A stretch of 59,895 bases of DNA, the filler included, from Sphacelaria rigidula (Eukaryota): NCBI GenBank assembly GCA_964200075.2. It is 8 parts of 8 records of this genome, joined end to end, with 100 filler letters (N's around TTAATTAATTAA, not from the genome) between each part and the next. Parts side by side here need not be neighbours in the genome. Positions count along the whole stretch, not along the records: positions 52,498 to 59,895 come from CAXNAA020015102.1; 7 more parts are not named here. One strand, written 5' to 3'. Below the pieces are notes generated by a model that worked only from the letters and a program-made list of their open reading frames with translations, had not been told where the DNA came from and searched no databases. Positions 7,501 to 59,895 of this stretch are shown piece by piece (position 1 is the stretch's first letter; each line of letters opens with the position of its first letter). The position numbers were made by a program, and so were the translations under genes.

Positions 7501-10500
7501 TGACGGCTTGCCTTACCCCTACTCTCAATCGTATCGAAGATTCTCAATCTCACGAAAACATTGTTTGTAGCAGCTTGCCACTGAGGCCCTTTATATCCCT
7601 GAGTAGGATGTCGACGTGTAGCTGTAAGCACACGCCAATGATGGAGGCAAATCAAAGCACAACCGGAACGGAAAAATGGCTAAGTCAAAGCGAATGATCA
7701 AAGCCACTCCTAATCAGCGCTCTACTCTCAAGAAAACGTTGTTAACGACAACTAACTGACGGTGAAGTGTCCATGCATGACGTGGAACTTTCCCGACGTT
7801 CATCCTCCAAAAGAAATACATCCTCAATTAGTTAGTAAAATCCCGCGTTCTTAGCGCCACCACTACGGTCTTTAACGAAGCCTGTCTATGTCACTTTCTT
7901 CAGTTGCCCATGGTGGTCGGTATGATACCATGCATACGATAATAATTGAGTACAAATGGTATAACAGAATCGCGAGAGGTATTGATCGAATTTTGGGTCG
8001 AAAGCAATAACCGTGAGCCAGTTCATTTTTTTTTTATTATTATTATTATTTCCGCACATTAGTCTATCGCGTTTCAATTAATTGTTCGTGCACGCCCTTG
8101 ACGGTGGATTGCGTGTTGTAAAAAAAAATCACTGCGTATAGTATGTAACCTGTTGTTGTCTATTGCAATAGACGCGATAGTCGATATTGCATGCAGTACA
8201 CTTACTTTCTGACATTGCCATGAATAATGTCCAGAGTGTGAATTGTTGCTAATCATGGTTGGTCGTTCTCCCACCGCGGGTCTGTCTGTGGATCAATGTG
8301 GTTATTATAAAGGTAAAGATGTTAACCCCACCATGGCCTGTTGCGAAACACCCCATACCGTACCATACACCTCACTTCTCCGAGGTAAGGGTCCCTTAGC
8401 AATTGCGATGCCGCGTTCCGTTGAAGAATATCTGCACTCTATTGATTGGCTGAGCGGCGGCTTGGCTTTGCAATCCCCTTATAATTAGCACGTTTCAGCA
8501 ACTGATGCCAGCATTGCCGAGTTGGAGCTCTCTGATACTCCAGACGGCACGATTGATATATAGACATATAGTAGAGCTCTCTGCATAGAGCGCAGCACAG
8601 TGCGCTGTGGTACAGACTAGGGATGAGCATGTCTTGCTTGATTTTGTAGTTTACCTCTGATCTTGTATACGCCAACTGGAAGTCGTGGTTGCTGTTTTAC
8701 CCAGTCAGCAGTCAGTGCAGAAATGATTGTCGTGAGCACCGAATATATCTGTATCATACGTAGGCAGCGCAGCACAGCTGGAAGTTGGCCGTTGGCGAAC
8801 CTTATTACTGAGTACATTAGTTCAACGTTTCGTCCTTCAACCGAACACAAACAAGCCGCAATGAGCACCGTGTACATGGAAGTGCATCACGTTCAGCGTA
8901 TTTGCATTCTAATCTGTGTCAGCTTCACTGTGCATCTGCCTGTGTCCCTTGGAAAGATGTGCGCGTGCGCGGGATTCCGCAAGTAACTTGCGGTTGGGTT
9001 CTGAAAAAGCATGTCATTTTGAAAAATTAGGTTTGTCCGATACTCGCCATTTGAATTACTGCCCATCGTATGACTTACCTCAGCCTATTATGAACCAACG
9101 TGGGTCAACCTGGCTGCTCATTGCGCATGCACTCCTTTACCGCTCTTCGTTAATTTATAGTGTTGCCCACTTCTTGATTGGACTCGCTATTTGCCTAAAT
9201 TTGTACGTGCCTTCACTGGGTAGTGTTTCAGAGGTTCCCAGATTGATGTAAGACCTGCCTCCCGTATCTACTACTGTACTGACGTATCTTTTCTATTTCC
9301 GCCAGATTCTCTGAGGTTCCGAAGTGGTGTGTACAAAAGGAAGCATTTGGCACATGGTTCGTTGTGGTCTCGTGTAGGTCTACCCCGTAATAGAACGATC
9401 AAAAACACAAGACTCAAGACTTCGCTAGATGGTCACAGCATGCGATACGATGCGATTGATGAAGTTTTCATCCCCCGTCCAATTTTGTAATCCACCATCC
9501 ACGCCATGTTCAGGGTCACGTCTTCATGTGAAAGGGCGCGGATCTTTCCCCAAGTCCATGCCGTACCCCCCCCCCCCCCCCGCGTGCGCGCGCGCCATTA
9601 GAAAACGGTTCGTGGAATACTCATGCCCGCTTTTTGTATGTCGATGCTTCGAAGTCGTGAATGTAGTCAACAAAAATGGAATCAATTCATCACCGAGTTT
9701 TAACTCCTTTACGTGAAGGTGGTGATGCACAATGCTGTTCTGTTCTCTCCTCTAAATAAGGATTCTGAGCCTGGACTCCTAGTTTATATTTATCTCGAGG
9801 ACGGCAACCCAATACTCGTACTAGCTTGGTGGCTATCGTGGTCGATGTACCAGTGAGGCCACAATAGTCCCTCTCCAAACCAACCCCAAAACTATCACGA
9901 AGAAATGGTCATACAGCGCGTGATAACCGATCTCGTACAGGGAGCGATGGGCGACATTACCGAAAACGATCCCAAACGTGAGCGTTCCCAGCTGCTCGGT
10001 GTTCTCGGCTTTCGTCGTTGTGATCCAATCAACATTTTGTCTCCTCAAGCCAGCTACTTTCCCAGGGGGATGCTATCACAGAACCATTCGTACGTACCTT
10101 TCAAGAAGACCTCCGACATGTTGGTATTGTACAATACGCGCACGGCAGACGTTGAAACGAGATTTCGTTACCGTACAGTCAACAAGGTATTGTAGCCGTT
10201 CGCAGCCGTTCATGATTTATGCTGAGGCAACCCACGATGCTGTCCGTTCGACTCTGCAGTACAAAGAGTGAGTGCCCCTATGTTTTAACTCCACAGCGAT
10301 TTGTATCGAATCGTACTTTTCCTGCAGCTGCATTTTTAGCGTTAGATATCCATGATAATTACTGCGGCATTAAAGCTGCATTTTCAACACCGAAAAAGTA
10401 AAATGATGGTGGAATTCCGACAACACACGATGCAGTCAGTATAGGTGGTACATCGCACATCATACTGCAGTACACACCGTACAGAAGACTCCGGCGCTGA

Positions 10501-36649: not shown

Positions 36650-36935
36650 CAAGGGAATTCTGACTCCATGTCAACCTGTTTGGACAGCATGGGAAAATCC
36701 TGGCCGCTTGTCAACCTGTTCGGACAGCATGGGAATTCATGGATGCCTGTCAACCTATTCGCACGCGAAAGGGAAACTCCTGGCCCCCTGTCAACCTGTT
36801 CGAAAACATATGGGAAATCCTGGCTCCCTGTCAACCTGTTCGAAAACATATGGGAAATCCTGGATCTCTGCCAATCTGTTCGCGCGCACAAGGGAAACTC
36901 CTGGCCCCCTGTTGACCTATTCGAAAACACATGGT
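36650..36935 (+). repeat. ~40-bp minisatellite, about 7 units
   Basis: Unit GGGAAATCCTGGCTCCCTGTCAACCTGTTCGAAAACATAT. Confidence 0.9.
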
Positions 36936-37240
36936 CTTGACATCTTGAGCCTTCGTCCTCGCCCATTTTCCTGTATGCAATAAAATCCTGCTTGTTCGCT
37001 GTATGGTGCAAGCATATATATATATATATATGGTTCATACAACTTTCTCGTTCTGTCCGACTTGTATGTTGGCAACTTGCATAGTCTCCACGATAAACAC
37101 ACGAGTCGTTCATTACAAGTCAACCACTTTCATCATATTATTTGCGGTGTAAATCTCGGCAAAAAAATGTGTGGAACCCATGAACTTTCAAGACCAGAAG
37201 AATGTAGCCTTGCCTCCGGGACGGTCATAGCGCGCAGACA

Positions 37241-37370
37241 GGTAGAAGGTCATCTTCGAATTGATTGTCGGAGCACGCGCATGTAGACGGTCATCTTTGA
37301 ATGGATTGTCAGAGCGTGCACAAGTAGACGGTCATCTTCGAATTGATTGTCGGAGTGTGCACGAGTATAG
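37241..37370 (+). repeat. ~41-bp tandem repeat, 3 units
   Basis: Unit GTAGACGGTCATCTTCGAATTGATTGTCGGAG... Confidence 0.85.
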
Positions 37371-51719: not shown

Positions 51720-52172
51720 CTTGAGCTAGCTCCTTTTCATCGTAGCTCCTTAGTGAGCTATGAGAGCTACATGAGCTACGCATGTTTTTCCCGAGTGAGC
51801 TACGAAAGCTGTATGAGCTTTACATGTTTGCCCTACGTGAGCTACCAACCCGTAGCTCATGATCGTCCCGGGTGAGCTATAGGAGCTGTATGAGCTACAC
51901 ACGTTTGCCATAGGTGAGCTACCAACCCGTCGTTCATCAGCTCATATTCGTCCTGGGTGAGCTATGAGAGCCGCATGAGCTACGCAGATTTGCCCTGGAT
52001 GAGCTATGAGAGATACATGAGCTACACATGTTTGCCCTGGATGAGTTGTGATAGATGCATGAGCTACACATGTTTGCCCTCGGTGAGCTACCGGACGTAG
52101 CTCATCCGCACATGTTTACTTTGGGTGAGCTATGAGGGCTAGATGACCTACGCATGATTGCCCTGGCTAAGC
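51720..52172 (+). repeat. GAGCTA-rich ~41-bp minisatellite
   Basis: Approximate unit TGAGCTATGAGAGCTACATGAGCTACACATGTTTGCCCTGGG; irregular. Confidence 0.85.
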
Positions 52173-52497: not shown

Positions 52498-53793
52498 GTT
52501 TGACGATTGATCACGCATCTATTTCGAGACAGAGCACCGTTCCTACTCCTAGTAGAGGCAGCTCCAACATTCCGGCGCTCATTACGTTTCGTCCATAGAT
52601 TTCATAAAGACATTTTACATATCTTATCCCCGTCCTGTTTCGCCATCTGTGACCACCATCTATCTCCTTTTATTGCCATCGTTCTCTCGCTTCTGTCTAA
52701 TGCATCAAACGATTTCATGCTATCTTCGTTTACGTCCCGCATTTCCCCCTCTAGCACGTCCCGTTCTTCCCTGTATCGTTCACATTATGCCGCTATATGA
52801 CTTCTGCTCTCTATTGCTTTGCCACAGGGACAACTCTGTGCATCTACTTCCTCCTCTTCTCTACGACTACTATATATTTTCCTTTTCCTTTTCCTTCCCC
52901 TTTCCCTTTCCCTTTCCCTACCCCTTCATCCCCCNNNNNNNNNNTTTTTCGCAGCGTCCATTCGGCCACGCAAATATGCTTTCATCCCTATCCCCTCTCC
53001 CTACCACCCGTATATCTCCAGGTGTCCTTCCTCGTCTACTATGCGTCTGAGCGCTCCTTTTTCCCTTATTTTTTTAATGTCTCTTACTTTTGTCTAGTAC
53101 CCCGCATCTTCATCTATGAACAGTATTTCAGGTATTTCAGCTTGGTTTCCGCCCATCTCCTTCCACACTTTATCCACTTCTTCATTTCACCTTAGTTCTG
53201 CCCGCCTTCTCGTAGTTTCCTTCCATACAGCCCTATCAACTATAGGTGGCAATCTCTTTCTCTGCATGTTCTTTACGCTATATTGCCATCGCAATTTCCT
53301 CATTTCTCCATTTGTTTTTAGTGAGTGCATTCCCAACTCTGCTCTCAAAACTGTATTACTCGTCGTTTTCGAGCATCCGAGTATTTTCTTAGCTGCTTCC
53401 ATCTGCACTGTTTCCAACTTCTCCACTAACTTCACGTTCCCGTTCCATACTTCCCCTGCATATTCCAGCTTTGGTACGATCACGTTCATCAGGATACATC
53501 TTGTGATCCTAGTGTCTAGGCGCGGGTCTCTGAGGATCACGTCCATCCTACATATCTGTTCCACACCCTCTTCTATTACTTTTTTTATGTGTGCATCCCA
53601 CAAACAGGTTATTGAGATATCTACGCCAAGTTATAAAAACTGGTCTACGATCGGCAATTCCTCTTCTCCCCACTTCCACTTGAACTCTACCGGATTTTTC
53701 TCTCCTTCGTTACAGACAAGTACCACGCATTTGTTAACGTTCGCCGTCACTCTCCATTTCGCAGTAATCTAGCGCCTTGTCTATCTGTTTCTG
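52498..53793 (-). mobile_element. 5'-truncated LINE (RT C-terminal region), same family as 42226-44898
   Basis: KWRVTANVNKC..WKWGEEELPIVDQ..LGVDIS..WDAHIKKV..PKLEYAGEVW..LETVQMEAAKKILG..VLRAELG; nucleotide similarity to 42840-43740. Confidence 0.88.
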
Positions 53794-54108
53794 TGCGAGG
53801 GGGAGGGAGGGATATGGACCACTCCCAGGCCCGCGTGTTTTTCAGCCCATGTGATGCGGTCCATTTTGTTTACTTCACTCTTTCGTTGTATATTTCTGTT
53901 CGAGCTGCCGTTGAAACGCTTGTGCTCGTTTGCTTGCCTTGGTGGCGGCTACCTTCATGTCATGAATGCATTCGAAGCCGATCAGTCAACGTTGGTCAAG
54001 GATAGCTACAGGGCAGCTACAATCCAGGGCATCGCATATTGGAAGTTGTTGGTTCACAACAAGTATGTGAGGACGATAGCGCTTGTCGTCGCATACGAAA
54101 ATGGTCCA

Positions 54109-55054
54109 CACCCTGGACAATACAAAATGTAATATATATATATATATATTGCCCGCTCAATATATCGACGCGTCGGGTGGTCAATATATATTGGACGAGC
54201 AATATGATGACACGAGAGAGGGTCAATATATTGTGCCATCAATATATCAAGGCTCGCGATATGCAATATATATCGACCGAACAATATATCACGACACGCA
54301 CCACCTCAATATATATTGGCCGAGTAATATTTTGGTGCGAGAAGGCACCAATATATATTTGTCGAGTAACATATTGGCTGCCACCCGAGGTCAATATATA
54401 TTGACGATTCAATAGACTCGACACCCGAAGCGCCAATATATATTGCTGCCCCAATATGTCGTGCGTCGATGCGTCCAATATATACTGTGCGGACAATACA
54501 CGAGGGAACCGACGGTCACAATACATGCTGGTGTAGCAAAATGTACTGATTTGCAACATGTAGATTGGAAAGTGTAATGGAATTAGTATGGTGGGCAGTT
54601 CTATGTTCGCGGGCGCCATTCAAACACGTATTTTACATGCCGAAAACGCTCAATGTATTCCTCCGCAAGCGTGTTCAATATATATTGGCTGGACAATAGC
54701 TATCCGATCAACGTGCGCAATATATATTGGAAAAACGATACTTCTGCATGGTTTGCATTCAATATATATTATGGTAACAATATGCTACGCATCGCCTCGA
54801 CTCAATGTATGTTGACACTTCAATACACACACGGCCGGCATGCACAATATATATTGAATGTTTTATTCTCGGAGCAACTGCATGTCCGATACATATTGGC
54901 ATAAATTACTTCATGATCATGACACGAGCAATATATGTTGCTTCAATATCTCCGAGGACATCTCAACACAATATATATTGAAAGGACAATATTTGCGCTG
55001 GCTCCAATGCGGAGTATTGGTATCATATTGGAACATATTGTATTGTCCAGGGTA
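54109..55054. mobile_element. TIR-bounded element filled with a 42-43-bp phased CAATATATATTG repeat/spacer array
   Basis: Left end CACCCTGGACAATACAAAATGT, right end ACATATTGTATTGTCCAGGGTA|TA; about 17 phased palindromes. Confidence 0.8.
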
Positions 55055-55410
55055 TAAGCAACACAGCCCCGGTGACCACCGGGGTACCAAAAGGCGCATA
55101 TCGACCCGCGTTTCCTGTCATCGTGACGTTTAGGCAAGATATATCAATTACATGCTGGAAAGGGGATGGGCGACCCCACACCGGTGGCCAGATAGGTATC
55201 AGGAGGCATCTTTACCGGGTCGCCTCTTCTGTCACCATATTTTCTTATCAGAATGCATATATATATATATATATATATATCAAACGCATTCGACAACTTT
55301 CCGGAATAATGCACGCAAACTTCTGCGACTCCCTTTGAAGCTTTTTCCAATCTGCACGGGCTCCGGCATCCATCGCGTTTGGATCTTTCTTGAAGTGGAC
55401 TCCATACTTA

Positions 55411-55738
55411 TATAACATCCAATACATATTGACCGGCCAATACATTATCACCAACGCAGACCCAATATATATTGGCCGGCCAATACGTTCTCATCGATGC
55501 GACCGTAATATATATTGGTCGTGCAATATGCCGTCGCCCACGCTGCCCTAATATATATTAATGAGACAATATGTGTGTAACCCAATAGTACCAACATATA
55601 TTGGGCGGGCAATATGTATGCAGTCCCACGACATCGATATATATTGGGTGCGCAATACATGTGCAGTCTCAGGGTACCAATAATTCCAACATGATCGGCT
55701 AATATATATATTGGAAACATGTTGTATTGTCCAGGGTG
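55411..55738. mobile_element. Second, left-truncated copy of the CAATATATATTG-array element
   Basis: Palindromes at 55420, 55463, 55506, 55549, 55592 and 55635; right TIR ACATGTTGTATTGTCCAGGGTG|TA. Confidence 0.8.
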
Positions 55739-55928
55739 TAGAATGGTCATACGTACCTTGCTTTTCTTCTTCTCATTTTGTGCTGTGTATGTACCTCGCT
55801 TACCCTAAAATGCGGTCTCGTATATATTTGGGATACGTGCAGCGAGCGGTGGATATGCCAATCAAGGGAGAGAGCACCTATTAACTTCCAGAAATGCACA
55901 TCACTTATATCCGGAAAGCACGTTGCTC

Positions 55929-58668
55929 ATGTGGACCCTTGCCGTCGTCATTGCTGGGTTGATGTCGCTTCTCTGTGTTTTCTGTTTTGTTGTCGGCGCC
56001 CAGTCGTCAAGCAGCAGCAAAGCGTCTTCATCCTCCAGCAGTAAAGCCACAGGCAAAGCAAAAGGCGTGAAAAAATCGACGGCATCATCATCGAAGGACA
56101 AGTTGAAGAAGAAGAAAGACAAGCCCCGAAAGCCGACATTTATGACCACCCTCAAAGCCTTCTTCCACTCCTTGGTCAACCCTCAGTGAGTATCGTATAT
56201 ACTTGTCTCTGCGTCTGTTGCGTACCGGAACCATTCCAAGGACCACACCCTTCCCCGCCCCCCCCCCCCCCCACCTATTTCTCCTTCAAGACTTTTTTCA
56301 AACATGAGAAGAAACCACGACAAGAGCAGCACGAAGGCCTTCGTGTAATGCGTGAGAGAATCGCGTGCTTAGAGGACCGCGCTGTAGTTCAAAACACCTC
56401 AGGATCGACGTTTTTCAATACCAATCGGGGAAGTCTCTGCAGAGACCACGCCCCTGACCATAATCCCAACACCAACCCTGACCCTAACCGTAACCATAGG
56501 GATGTTCAAATTCCGATGCGTTCCTCTAAGCGCGCGGTCCTCTCACGCATTACACTTCGCACAAGCAGCTGCATGAGCTCCGGAAGCGATGTTCAGTGCA
56601 TAGGCAACGGGAATTGAAGTACCCTCATTCTACACCCTCCCTGTAAGGTGCTGTGCGGTCTTCAGGTAACTCCAAGAACCACGCACGTCACTCGTATCTT
56701 ATCAATCATCACGTCGGATCGATCTTTCTGGCCCACGGTCAACTCGTACCGATAGTTCAAAAACAGAACTATCCATTCCTTGAAGTCCAGCAACGTACTT
56801 TCATCACGTGAAATAATTTCATCTTGAGACGTCTAACTACTAAATGAATTCAGAATACCCGACCACCCCCCCCCCCACAGACCCACTCCCCGGCAAATTT
56901 GGGCTCATAAATAACATTTGAGTGTGATCCCCGAACTGAGAGAAACGGACCTTGAACGTACTATAGTTAGTGTACCGTACCGCTTGTTACAGCAGCGGCA
57001 CCGTTGTGCGGAGTACAACAAGTTGCCAGGCATACCTATCGCGGCTTTCCCGAGGGGCCGAAACCAGGGATTTGTCGCCAAAAGTTCAGGTGTCAACGAA
57101 ACTCATTACCGCTCTCGTTGCTCTTGTGACTATTGGTTATCGGTACAGAGTGGTGCGTGTCACACGTTCCGTGATTTTGACGAAGGCAGCAGTAGTTGGG
57201 TTATGGTGATAGGGTTGCGCGACCAAAACATCGGGTGTACTCATGATCTTGAAAAACGTCGGATGGAGCGGGGGAGGTGCAATCTTGATATATCTTTTGT
57301 GATGATGGAAAGTGCGTGCCCCTTTGAGAAACTCGTGGCCGCTTGTTTGCAGCGATCAGACGAGCATGCACTTTCGTTCGTCATCTGTGGCGCCATCACG
57401 TGGCGTCTCCGAGGGAACACGAGAAAAACTGATACGACAACTACGGTTGCATGTCTTTTTTCTCGCCACCGCAAAAAGTGTGTGTTTCTGCGTATTATTT
57501 ATCATTCGCACTCTCTTTCTACCCATGCAAACGTTTGTTCTGCATGCACGGAAGCGCGTCCGCAGTTAGGATACCCTCCATTGTTTTGGTAGTACCGTGT
57601 GCTGTATTACATGCAGTGCCGGCTCGCTATTAGTATTACGAGGTGACTGTAAAAGGGTCTGAGGGCGAAATGTTCGTTCGTGTAGCGTAAGGCAAGGTGT
57701 CCAAGAAATAGGGGTTATCCGCTTCCATGGGATGAGACAGAAGTCAGATAAAGTATCGCGTCGCAAAGGCGCCAACGCGGATACAATGAGAGTACAAGCC
57801 TGGCAGGCCATAGCCTTGAATCAAAAAGATTAACCCATCTCCGGCGCTCATCGGGTCTGAGAAGTCCGTGGCGGGCATCCGCAATTTTCCAGCGCATCCA
57901 TATGGGGCGTGTGTGATCAGTCACCGAAAAAAAAACGAAATTTTTCCCTGTTGGATCGGTTAGGGTGTATTTTCTACTGCATACTATCGTCCATGTTATC
58001 CAGGAGGGGCCAAAAGGGGTTCGCCGGCGAGGCCGACTCTTCGTGAAAAACGAGAAACAAGAAACCGCCGATTTTTTTGTGTTGTTGGGAACATGAAGTC
58101 CCCGACTAGGATTTTTTTTCAGCTGAACCTTTTGCCAAAGTCAATATTGAGCTGGATCTAAATATGTTGTTTCTTACTGGCGGGCTGGTAATGCAATGCG
58201 TTCACACCAGAGCGCACCCCGCGACGCTTGCAGATCAACCAGAGCCGAAGACGGTAGCACACGAGTCTCGGGGGTGCGGTTCATGATGACGGTATTATCC
58301 CCCAGTCATGATATTTTTCAGGGTTAATGACCTCATATCGTACTTATATCCGTTCACTTTCGCGCAAGAGAAACCATTTGTCGTCGGACCGCTTGTGATT
58401 ATGGCTGGACCGTTCGTTCTTCACCGTCCGTTTTTCTTGGAGTTTGTTCTGCGGTCATCACCGGGCACGCTGCACTGAATTTCGAATGTTTCTCCCATTC
58501 CTTGAAAATATTTGGTTTTTTCTGTCTCTCCGTGCCACGTCTTCTATGTGCCGGTCGACCGACTCTTCCGCGAACGTGTGTCCATGCAGCTTCGCGTTGA
58601 AACTGGAGGCGAAGAAGGCGAATCAGGTGCACACCGTGCACGGAACAGCATCCACCACGAAGGCATAG
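55929..58668 (+). CDS. Small (~111 aa) protein with a hydrophobic N-terminus and a Ser/Lys-rich linker; exons 55929-56185 and 58590-58668
   Basis: MWTLAVVIAGLMSLLCVFCFVVGAQSSSS...KPTFMTTLKAFFHSLVNP, then donor CA|GTGAGT (phase 2) joins acceptor ATGCAG|C to give HFALKLEAKKANQVHTVHGTASTTKA*. The frame is also open upstream to a possible acceptor at 55842, so the true start may lie further 5'. Confidence 0.6.
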
Positions 58669-59895
58669 CGAGAGCGAACATGAAGTTTTGAACCTGATGT
58701 ACGGGATGGATGGCACGTGGAAGAAAAAGTAGAAGGTCCAATCTTTCGCGCTCACCCAAATTCGGCGGGGAGGTGGAGCGGGCAGTCTAGATTCAAGTAA
58801 TTTGGCTGTCAGACGTATTCACAACACTGAAACTAAAGTTAGTTGAAGTGTTGCGAGTGCTATGAACTGGTTGACAGGGATGTACACTGATTTGGGAGAC
58901 TAGTGGAAGCTGAGTCAGAAATTCCGAACTGGTACGGTGAAAAAATAAACGGAGAGACCTCCGAGTGTTGGAGTTGCCTGGGATTGTTCGCGCCACCAAT
59001 GGAAGTGGTGTAGGAACACGCCAGTTCACCTTACGGTATGAGTCATTTTTTTCAGTTGGGTTCCTCCTTCGGCCGATACAGTTACATGCTGAGGGCTTGA
59101 TATTATTCTCAAGGTGGGTTTGACAGCTGCTGTGATGGTTGGGCAATGTACAAAAAAGGGTACACCCTGGTGCTTTCGGAACAAAAAAGGGTAACGCTGT
59201 TTCGCTTTGGGGGCGACGCTGCACGCTGGCTGAACACCTCGAAAACACGTTCCAGCACCTCAGCCCCACGCCCAAGGTGTCTGGGCAGCAAGCATACCCG
59301 TCCGTATGTTTTCATTTGCACAAGTGTTGGTGGGCTGAACTACGGCGCCATAAATGAGAGCCTGTGAGAGTACCCTTTTTTGTGAGCAAACCAGGAGGGT
59401 GCACCCTGCCCTCTGTTGAAAAGTGATATCTACCCTTTTTTGTTTTCCTGTTGACCCTCTTTTGTGAAGTGGTGACTGTACCGCCGTCTCAGCACAAGTT
59501 ACGCCGAGCAGTCACAGCCATAGCCATTTCGGTGAATTCGGTAAAATTATATCCCACCAAAAAAGGCCGAAACCGAACGACCGGAAGAGTGTAGCCCCCC
59601 TGTTGGTCGGTCCGAAGACCAGGAAGATCCATTGATGCATATAGATTGCTTGTGTGCCGGAGCTCACAAAGATCCAACGACCATGGGTGAGCATCTTGCC
59701 GACACACCAGCCCGAACGGCATCATGCGGAGACAACGTCAGACCGTTAAACCTTTCTACGATAGCCCCCCCCCCAAAAAAAACCAGCTACAAGTGTCACG
59801 AAAAAAATGGCCACACAGCGCCTGATTTTCGGGTTCAGGCTGCATGAAGCGCCTCATATTGGCGACATTGGCTAGAACGAACCCAAGCGTGGGAA

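Follow-up and report, generated by a model that had tools for sequence, protein, structure and literature searches.

A CACAC-ended non-autonomous hAT transposon with 42-43-bp repeat arrays in the genome of Sphacelaria rigidula

Results

The element and its boundaries

The window analysed here is a stretch of 59,895 nucleotides, filler included, which joins eight parts of eight records of the Sphacelaria rigidula assembly GCA_964200075.2. Within its last part (positions 52,498 to 59,895, from CAXNAA020015102.1) lies a 1634-bp element, at positions 54107-55740, with CACAC…GTGTG termini. It carries three terminal inverted repeat (TIR) copies, three arrays of tandem units and a remnant of a transposase gene, and is flanked by a target site duplication (TSD):

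54099-54106, plus strand: left TSD copy, 8 bp, 7/8 identical to the right copy
54107-54130, plus strand: left TIR, starting with CACAC; the 3' end of the element, judged by the orientation of the transposase remnant
54140-54560, plus strand: array 1, 10 units of 42-43 bp; 3' subterminal lattice
54676-55010, plus strand: array 2, eight units; a lattice with the polarity of a 5' end, lying behind the internal TIR copy
55033-55056, minus strand: internal TIR copy, with TATAC in place of the CACAC start; directly oriented with respect to the 5' end and not seen as a free end
55057-55283, minus strand: shared stretch of about 230 bp, present in all subfamilies, with no detectable transposase homology
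55284-55410, minus strand: remnant of the first exon of a hAT transposase, which stops just past the Cys-x4-Cys half of a BED zinc finger
55420-55690 (end approximate), plus strand: array 3, six clear 43-bp units in the window copy; 5' subterminal lattice
55717-55740, minus strand: true right TIR, the 5' end of the element; its first base is T in the window copy
55741-55748, plus strand: right TSD copy, 8 bp

The initial annotation had delimited a shorter element with two arrays (54109..55054), whose right TIR was placed at 55033-55054. That repeat is an internal copy, since the same flank continues behind it in 29 of the 29 loci scored (from a set of 30), whereas a third TIR match, ending at 55740, together with array 3 (55420 to about 55690), had been overlooked. 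Among 48 distinct two-ended copies, identity between the two flanks peaks at 8 bp, with a mean of 0.854 against 0.40 or less at 2-7 and 9-12 bp. The duplication is perfect in 23 of these copies and has one mismatch in 14 (37/48 with one at most), two in five, and four to six in the remaining six, and the target sites follow an A/T-rich consensus, R-AATATT-Y. An assignment to CACTA/EnSpm, suggested by the CAC start, was ruled out by a TSD of 8 bp rather than 2-4. KDZ/Zisupton elements, whose termini are complex and for the most part asymmetric and which encode a KDZ transposase, would fit the 8-bp TSD, but the simple symmetric TIRs are unlike those in the KDZ rows of the table in PMC12477816, and a remnant that is a hAT-type BED exon also speaks against them; the KDZ profile PF18758 gave no match, in a search where the control likewise matched nowhere.

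A search of the same genome with the 950 bp first delimited returned 603 candidates, and among the 40 scored the other copies were 86-92% identical over nearly their full length. The exact TIR 15-mer was counted 355 times genome-wide (control, 0), and the copies of the family probably number in the hundreds. The 34 full copies differ by 2.8-7.4% from their majority sequence, with the closest pair 4.8% apart, a divergence which would point to an old burst in a sample that favoured window-like copies. There are longer subfamilies too: one measures 3.63 kb, and others, which are older, show 71-77% identity. About 2 kb of the 3.63-kb form are missing from the window copy at 55409-55419, a deletion that joins array 3 to the BED remnant.

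Several other features were recorded around these copies. About 450 bp to the left of the element, a minus-strand reading frame (53190-53660) had no Pfam match and resembles by eye what we take to be the C-terminal portion of a reverse transcriptase from a LINE; some 190 bp from the 5' end of the element, what is probably the first exon of a host gene, encoding a hydrophobic N-terminus, lies on the plus strand at about 55935-56189. A separate high-copy repeat of about 770 bp (L063:2915-3680) is fixed within the 3.63-kb subfamily and also occurs near two hAT genes, and three loci (L022, L023 and L076) hold copies with a second 5' end 540-740 bp past the first. CACAC-type elements frequently sit inside one another or inside their own arrays, as at L073, L075, L069, L090, L210, L211, L217 and L218, with 135-bp MITEs within hAT introns among the cases, and the target consensus of this type of element resembles the lattice motif. 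Another CACAC-type TIR-like end lies on the minus strand at window position 8240.

A transposase remnant of the hAT type

No transposase gene had been recognised in the contig, yet a fragment of one lies inside the element on the minus strand (55284-55410). It matches the first exon found at locus L139 (E 3e-12, 61%); since this half-exon had no score against an independent HMM made from the exons of other families, its assignment as a BED finger runs through L139. The L139 exon encodes the full C-x4-C…H-x4-H finger, which carries the Atlas label of a BED finger with very high confidence, and it matches, with an E value of 2e-17, an HMM derived from 11 exons that belong to other families, that of L172 (below) among them, while Pfam zf-BED matched none of the four BED pieces scanned, L139 included. 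At the DNA level this exon is 69% identical to a decayed reading frame inside the long subfamily. It is the sole complete exon 1 found for the family, and contains a stop, with a Gypsy insertion after it.

Related genes occur elsewhere in the genome, where PF05699 has 139 matches. The gene at L172 combines PF05699 with a BED-like first exon that matches L139 (E 6e-8, and 2e-8 in a second comparison), and its end shares the 14-nt TIR of the window family; PF05699 is likewise present in a second relative (L190), and in a sister family, named here family S, hAT core motifs were recovered by tblastn. A midpoint-rooted tree of 22 exon pieces, based on a short alignment, sets L139, seven remnants of the window family and family S apart from the other CACAC genes, with 93/91 support.

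No intact transposase of the window family appeared among the 20 candidates scored, only L139 being close, and the family's arrays were absent from 30 loci of the 139 PF05699 matches, from 20 extended regions, from 18 regions drawn from 39 matches to the catalytic exon and from C4634. Contig numbers follow length, and contigs numbered side by side were mostly not neighbours. The element itself lacks the DDE core and the C-terminal dimerisation domain. Its shared stretch (55057-55283), which by eye had looked like a transposase exon, was rejected as such when 114 aligned pieces had no score against the clade HMM, and is probably non-coding. Pfam returned nothing useful for nine ORFs of the long subfamily, none of 19 candidates among longer proteins held a homologue of the L139 exon (a weak negative), and a PDB sequence search gave chance matches only.

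hAT transposons generate 8-bp TSDs and move by a hairpin-forming cut-and-paste chemistry. The window family shows the 8-bp TSD, subterminal repeats at both ends, a BED finger in its cognate exon and a TIR in common with elements that carry hAT genes (14 nt with the end of L172 and 16 nt with family S). By these sequence characters it is classed as a non-autonomous hAT transposon of the CACAC-ended kind. The Ectocarpus hATs in the table of PMC12477816 are also entered with an 8-bp TSD.

Organisation of the arrays

The 17 palindrome starts listed in the initial annotation were all located where it placed them, in steps of 40-43 bp, and its observation that every unit across the element points the same way was upheld. 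A CAATA half-site had been described 18 nt after the start of most units; the third half-site at this distance is exact in nine of the 17 and near-exact in most of the others. When up to three mismatches are allowed, the bipartite motif occurs 26 times in the window, where chance would give 0.10 (0/100 shuffles), and the regular array is real, not a product of chance. In array 1, each unit consists of a 12-bp palindrome, a 6-bp linker, a third half-site and a spacer of about 19 bp, an architecture in which an inverted pair of half-sites is followed by a third 10 bp on. Array 3 has seven units in 25 of the 34 full copies, against the six clear ones of the window copy. At 10.5 bp per turn, 42 bp correspond to four turns of the helix, and the 42-43-bp period may have a role in helical phasing.

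The combination of a constant motif with unit-specific spacers of about 19 bp had evoked a CRISPR-like array that acquires spacers while riding on a transposon. We regard this as extremely improbable. The spacers vary between the units of one element, not between copies of the element: all 18 spacers tested occur in the same order in 18/18 close copies, the spacers of arrays 1-2 keep their order in 8-10 of the 9-10 copies from the long subfamily and in the majority of 12 old ones, and orthologous spacers of near copies are on average 77-98% identical. No gain of units at one end was seen in arrays 1-2, and acquisition of a CRISPR-like kind is largely ruled out by the fixed order. Moreover, no Cas family was found among the 37 window ORFs scanned against Pfam (from 69 ORFs of at least 120 aa), Rfam gave two chance-level matches only, and the whole element used as query matched no phage, a search for which 19-nt spacers would be too short. 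The TIR was not found in viral contigs either. The arrays are not a eukaryotic analogue of CRISPR.

The alternative put forward in the same annotation, in which a non-autonomous DNA transposon carries a phased lattice for protein binding, is backed by the TIR, the 8-bp TSD, the hAT BED remnant and the stronger conservation of motifs than of spacers between masters, the binding itself being a prediction.

Motif conservation and spacer drift

Evidence on the history of the units comes from their spacers. Non-orthologous spacers are 0.379 identical, against 0.353±0.005 after shuffling (0/500 shuffles reach this value), and such a faint common consensus is what an old tandem repeat would be expected to leave; neighbouring units of arrays 1-2 share an identity of 0.41. 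The masters, meaning the majority sequence of each subfamily (53 rows for the 1.63-kb one and nine for the 3.63-kb one), differ at 11 of 301 motif sites and at 48 of 440 sites in spacers and linkers (Fisher p 3e-4, with similar results at two other clustering thresholds). Between the same masters, the terminal TIR has changed at 0/23 sites, the internal TIR at 1/24 and the BED remnant at 15/119, and unit lengths are exactly kept across subfamilies. After insertion, decay is nearly uniform (5.4-5.8% in motifs and 6.6% in spacers, with no CpG excess).

These figures bear on a neutral reading, in which the arrays would be an old minisatellite inside a MITE and the A/T-rich motifs would persist only by mutation bias, slippage or conversion. 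The residual consensus among spacers would agree with it, as would the young homogeneous 42-bp arrays of another family (family T, below) and the weak contrast between motif and spacer when 12 older single copies are compared (0.141 for the palindrome, 0.164 for the third site and 0.159 for the spacer). However, neutral decay is about equal at A/T (5.9%) and G/C (6.9%) sites, against a three-fold difference in divergence between masters, the exact unit lengths are constant across subfamilies, and one period recurs in four families with differing motifs. The uniform decay expected of a neutral minisatellite is not what separates the masters, although the contrast is weaker against the old copies, and we hold this explanation to be improbable. 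The initial annotation had named uniform decay and subterminal repeats of a described kind of element as what would account for the pattern; the latter largely do so, while the decay is not uniform. The best reading of these comparisons is an old 42-bp tandem unit whose putative BED-binding sites would have been kept by selection; gene conversion among A/T motifs, or their slippage, could leave a similar pattern.

Sister families with the same period

Three further CACAC families, S, T and U, share the 42-43-bp period of the window family and have other motifs. Two of them are represented in the window:

38089-39491: family T element with two young 42-bp arrays; its right TIR ends at 39491, its left TIR was not found
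51752-52136: family U array; its identity with the two terminal arrays of L190 is about 72-77%

Family S (L210-L214 and part of L219-L229) is about 7.8 kb long; beyond the 16 TIR bases already mentioned, which are the first of its end, it has no blastn match to the long element at E 0.01, and its unit combines a palindrome with a third site at both ends, like that of the window family, with a different palindrome centre. In family T, which occurs in the window and at L210, the palindrome is CAACTAGTTG, and in family U, found in the window and at L190, the motif is TGAGCTA; both have a period peak at 42 bp. L190:724-8755 is an 8.0-kb CACAC hAT gene with family U arrays at both ends, the end of L172 shows a weak period peak at 43, and at L171 a CACAC end stands beside a hAT gene with no 42-bp period. 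The identity of neighbouring units runs from 0.82-0.85 in T to 0.40 at the 5' end of S, a range that looks like an ageing series. A single public protein, labelled brown alga, is homologous to a sister transposase exon.

A complete 1.08-kb relative of family T, with a near-perfect 8-bp TSD, lies at L210:707-1788, and two more arrays, with periods of 40-41 bp, occur in the window at 36656-36934 and 37238-37367.

Internal TIR copies

The signature of the internal TIR has 113 matches in the genome; among the 100 of them that were listed, inspection by eye found 96 with the fixed flank or a slipped form of it, three true 5' ends and one ambiguous case. One locus holds two internal-type copies on opposite strands (L235:820 and 852), one of them with an unusual flank. 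Hypermutation at CpA found no support as the cause of the TATAC start, CpA sites not being hypermutable here.

Family S also carries a TIR copy with a lattice, in this case inside a spliced intron of its transposase gene. Contigs from four runs of one study, which we guess to be RNA, join across it at GT..AG and leave out 1357 bases, giving a spliced frame that aligns with the protein of L172, which is uninterrupted. For the window element no RNA data set was listed as a carrier, a result with no bearing on its expression. In L217/L218 a short intron sits at the codon position of the S intron (L210:4288-5645), which L172, L190 and L200-L202 lack.

The junctions of both internal ends, of the window family and of S, share the same seven non-terminal bases, while their polarity differs (5'-end type in the window family, 3'-end type in S), and the flanks before the two internal TIRs have no significant homology (19, 11 and 283 of 300 shuffles reach the score). 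On these sequences, the two internal ends may share a common ancestry or may stem from independent nested insertions.

The internal TIR could be a relic, the 5' end of a complete mini-element of about 950 bp inserted into a gene of its own family, instead of a functional part of the present transposon, and we give this origin an even chance. Its 5'-end polarity would suit such an insertion, as would the complete 950-bp unit that it delimits with the left end; self-insertion was seen in 2/48 copies, the arrays have a 2.7-fold higher density of the target consensus than the remainder of the window, and the S internal end has the opposite polarity and wider flanks that are not homologous. On the other side stand the seven junction bases common to both families, the single change in 24 sites between masters (alone not significant), the membership of the array 2 motifs in the constrained set and the lack of any free 950-bp copy among the 100 listed of 113 matches.

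Discussion

A non-autonomous hAT with subterminal repeats is ordinary. In the literature searched, which covered few subscription journals or Repbase reports, we found nothing apt on a phased 42-bp hAT lattice or on an intronic TIR, and have not found in print a long lattice of fixed period common to families with different motifs, nor internal TIR copies of this kind.

The closest named relative would be hAT-2_Ec32 (Repbase hAT-2_ESi) of Ectocarpus sp. 7, which in supplement 1, row 124, of PMC12477816 has CACAC-GTGTG termini, a TIR of about 21 bp and a spliced hAT gene. That element is 8.9 kb long, against about 7.8 kb in family S and 8.0 kb in family U, the relatives that carry a gene here, and is represented by one intact copy with an assumed TSD, whereas the 8-bp TSD and the target consensus of the window family were measured. 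Its table row, with which we compare by description only, makes no mention of a subterminal lattice or an internal TIR.

Hermes and Tol2, also mobilised by BED transposases, offer a structural parallel. In Hermes, three BED domains, contributed by three dimers, are bound by a quasi-palindromic pair of subterminal repeats (STRs) together with a third one, and in Tol2 a palindrome is followed by a third STR 10 bp on, so that both have a palindromic pair of short sites with a third about 10 bp further (PMC10368747). As each unit of the window family has this geometry, the arrays may be read as iterated BED-binding modules. The STRs of Hermes and Tol2 are scattered and asymmetric, three being bound at the left end of Hermes, and the 7-10 units per end found here exceed the known need of three STRs per end in the Hermes structure (PMC10368747). 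In the window family, by contrast, each end has 7-10 repeats of the three-site module, spaced at a constant 42-43 bp and all pointing one way across the element, and a lattice also lies behind the internal TIR copy. Additional conserved TIRs are known from non-autonomous MULEs, where those with one solo extra TIR hardly amplified (PMC3310237), unlike the three-TIR hAT family described here, with at least 113 internal-TIR copies and a sister family that has one in a transposase intron.

We consider it probable that the element is a CACAC-ended non-autonomous hAT derived by deletion, whose arrays are subterminal repeats with sites kept, most likely, for cooperative BED binding. Internal deletions of an element carrying a transposase gene would have produced the non-autonomous form, whose cut-and-paste movement into A/T-rich R-AATATT-Y sites would have been driven in trans. 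The 42-bp unit would have been amplified in tandem long ago, its free positions drifting almost to saturation while the three half-sites per unit and the four-turn period were retained, most likely through the cooperative binding of transposase BED zinc fingers during the assembly of the transpososome.

The main rival reading of the lattice, which we find rather unlikely, gives it a mostly regulatory function, with the transposase, or a BED-only splice form of it, coating the arrays and controlling its own transcription or chromatin in the manner of VANC. A lattice within intron 2 of family S, 2.5 kb from the end, and a BED finger encoded on a separate exon 1 would be in keeping with such a role, and the motifs recognised by VANC are family-specific tandem repeats that have grown in the introns and terminal non-coding DNA of VANDAL elements (PMC5735166); a 2026 preprint also deals with transposases as regulators. 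However, motifs are constrained between the masters of non-autonomous subfamilies that have no gene, and the TIRs adjoin the lattices. VANDALs belong to the MULE superfamily, encode a separate anti-silencing protein and gain or lose repeat units rapidly (PMC5735166), whereas the window family is a hAT, its unit number is fixed, and no obvious second gene was seen in a simple ORF listing of S and U, which spliced genes may escape. Roles in synapsis and in regulation may coexist.

More speculatively, and we hold this to be unlikely as a whole, a 42-43-bp lattice could extend clade-wide through the brown algal CACAC hATs, with a three-site BED module at every fourth helical turn, the period set by the architecture of the transposase and the motif co-evolving with the BED finger of each family; the transpososome would then be of a higher order or filament-like over about 400 bp per end, and the uncut intronic TIR copy with its lattice would act as an internal enhancer or an autoregulatory decoy.

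The favoured reading, of subterminal arrays kept for cooperative BED binding, touches on why hATs need 100-200 bp of subterminal sequence and on how many BED domains engage. The periodic families with differing motifs form a natural series for spacing, valency and the co-evolution of BED finger and motif, and one sister transposase, apparently spliced in public contigs, could serve as a test enzyme. A measured TSD and a target consensus are now available for a hAT lineage whose Ectocarpus representative was without both.
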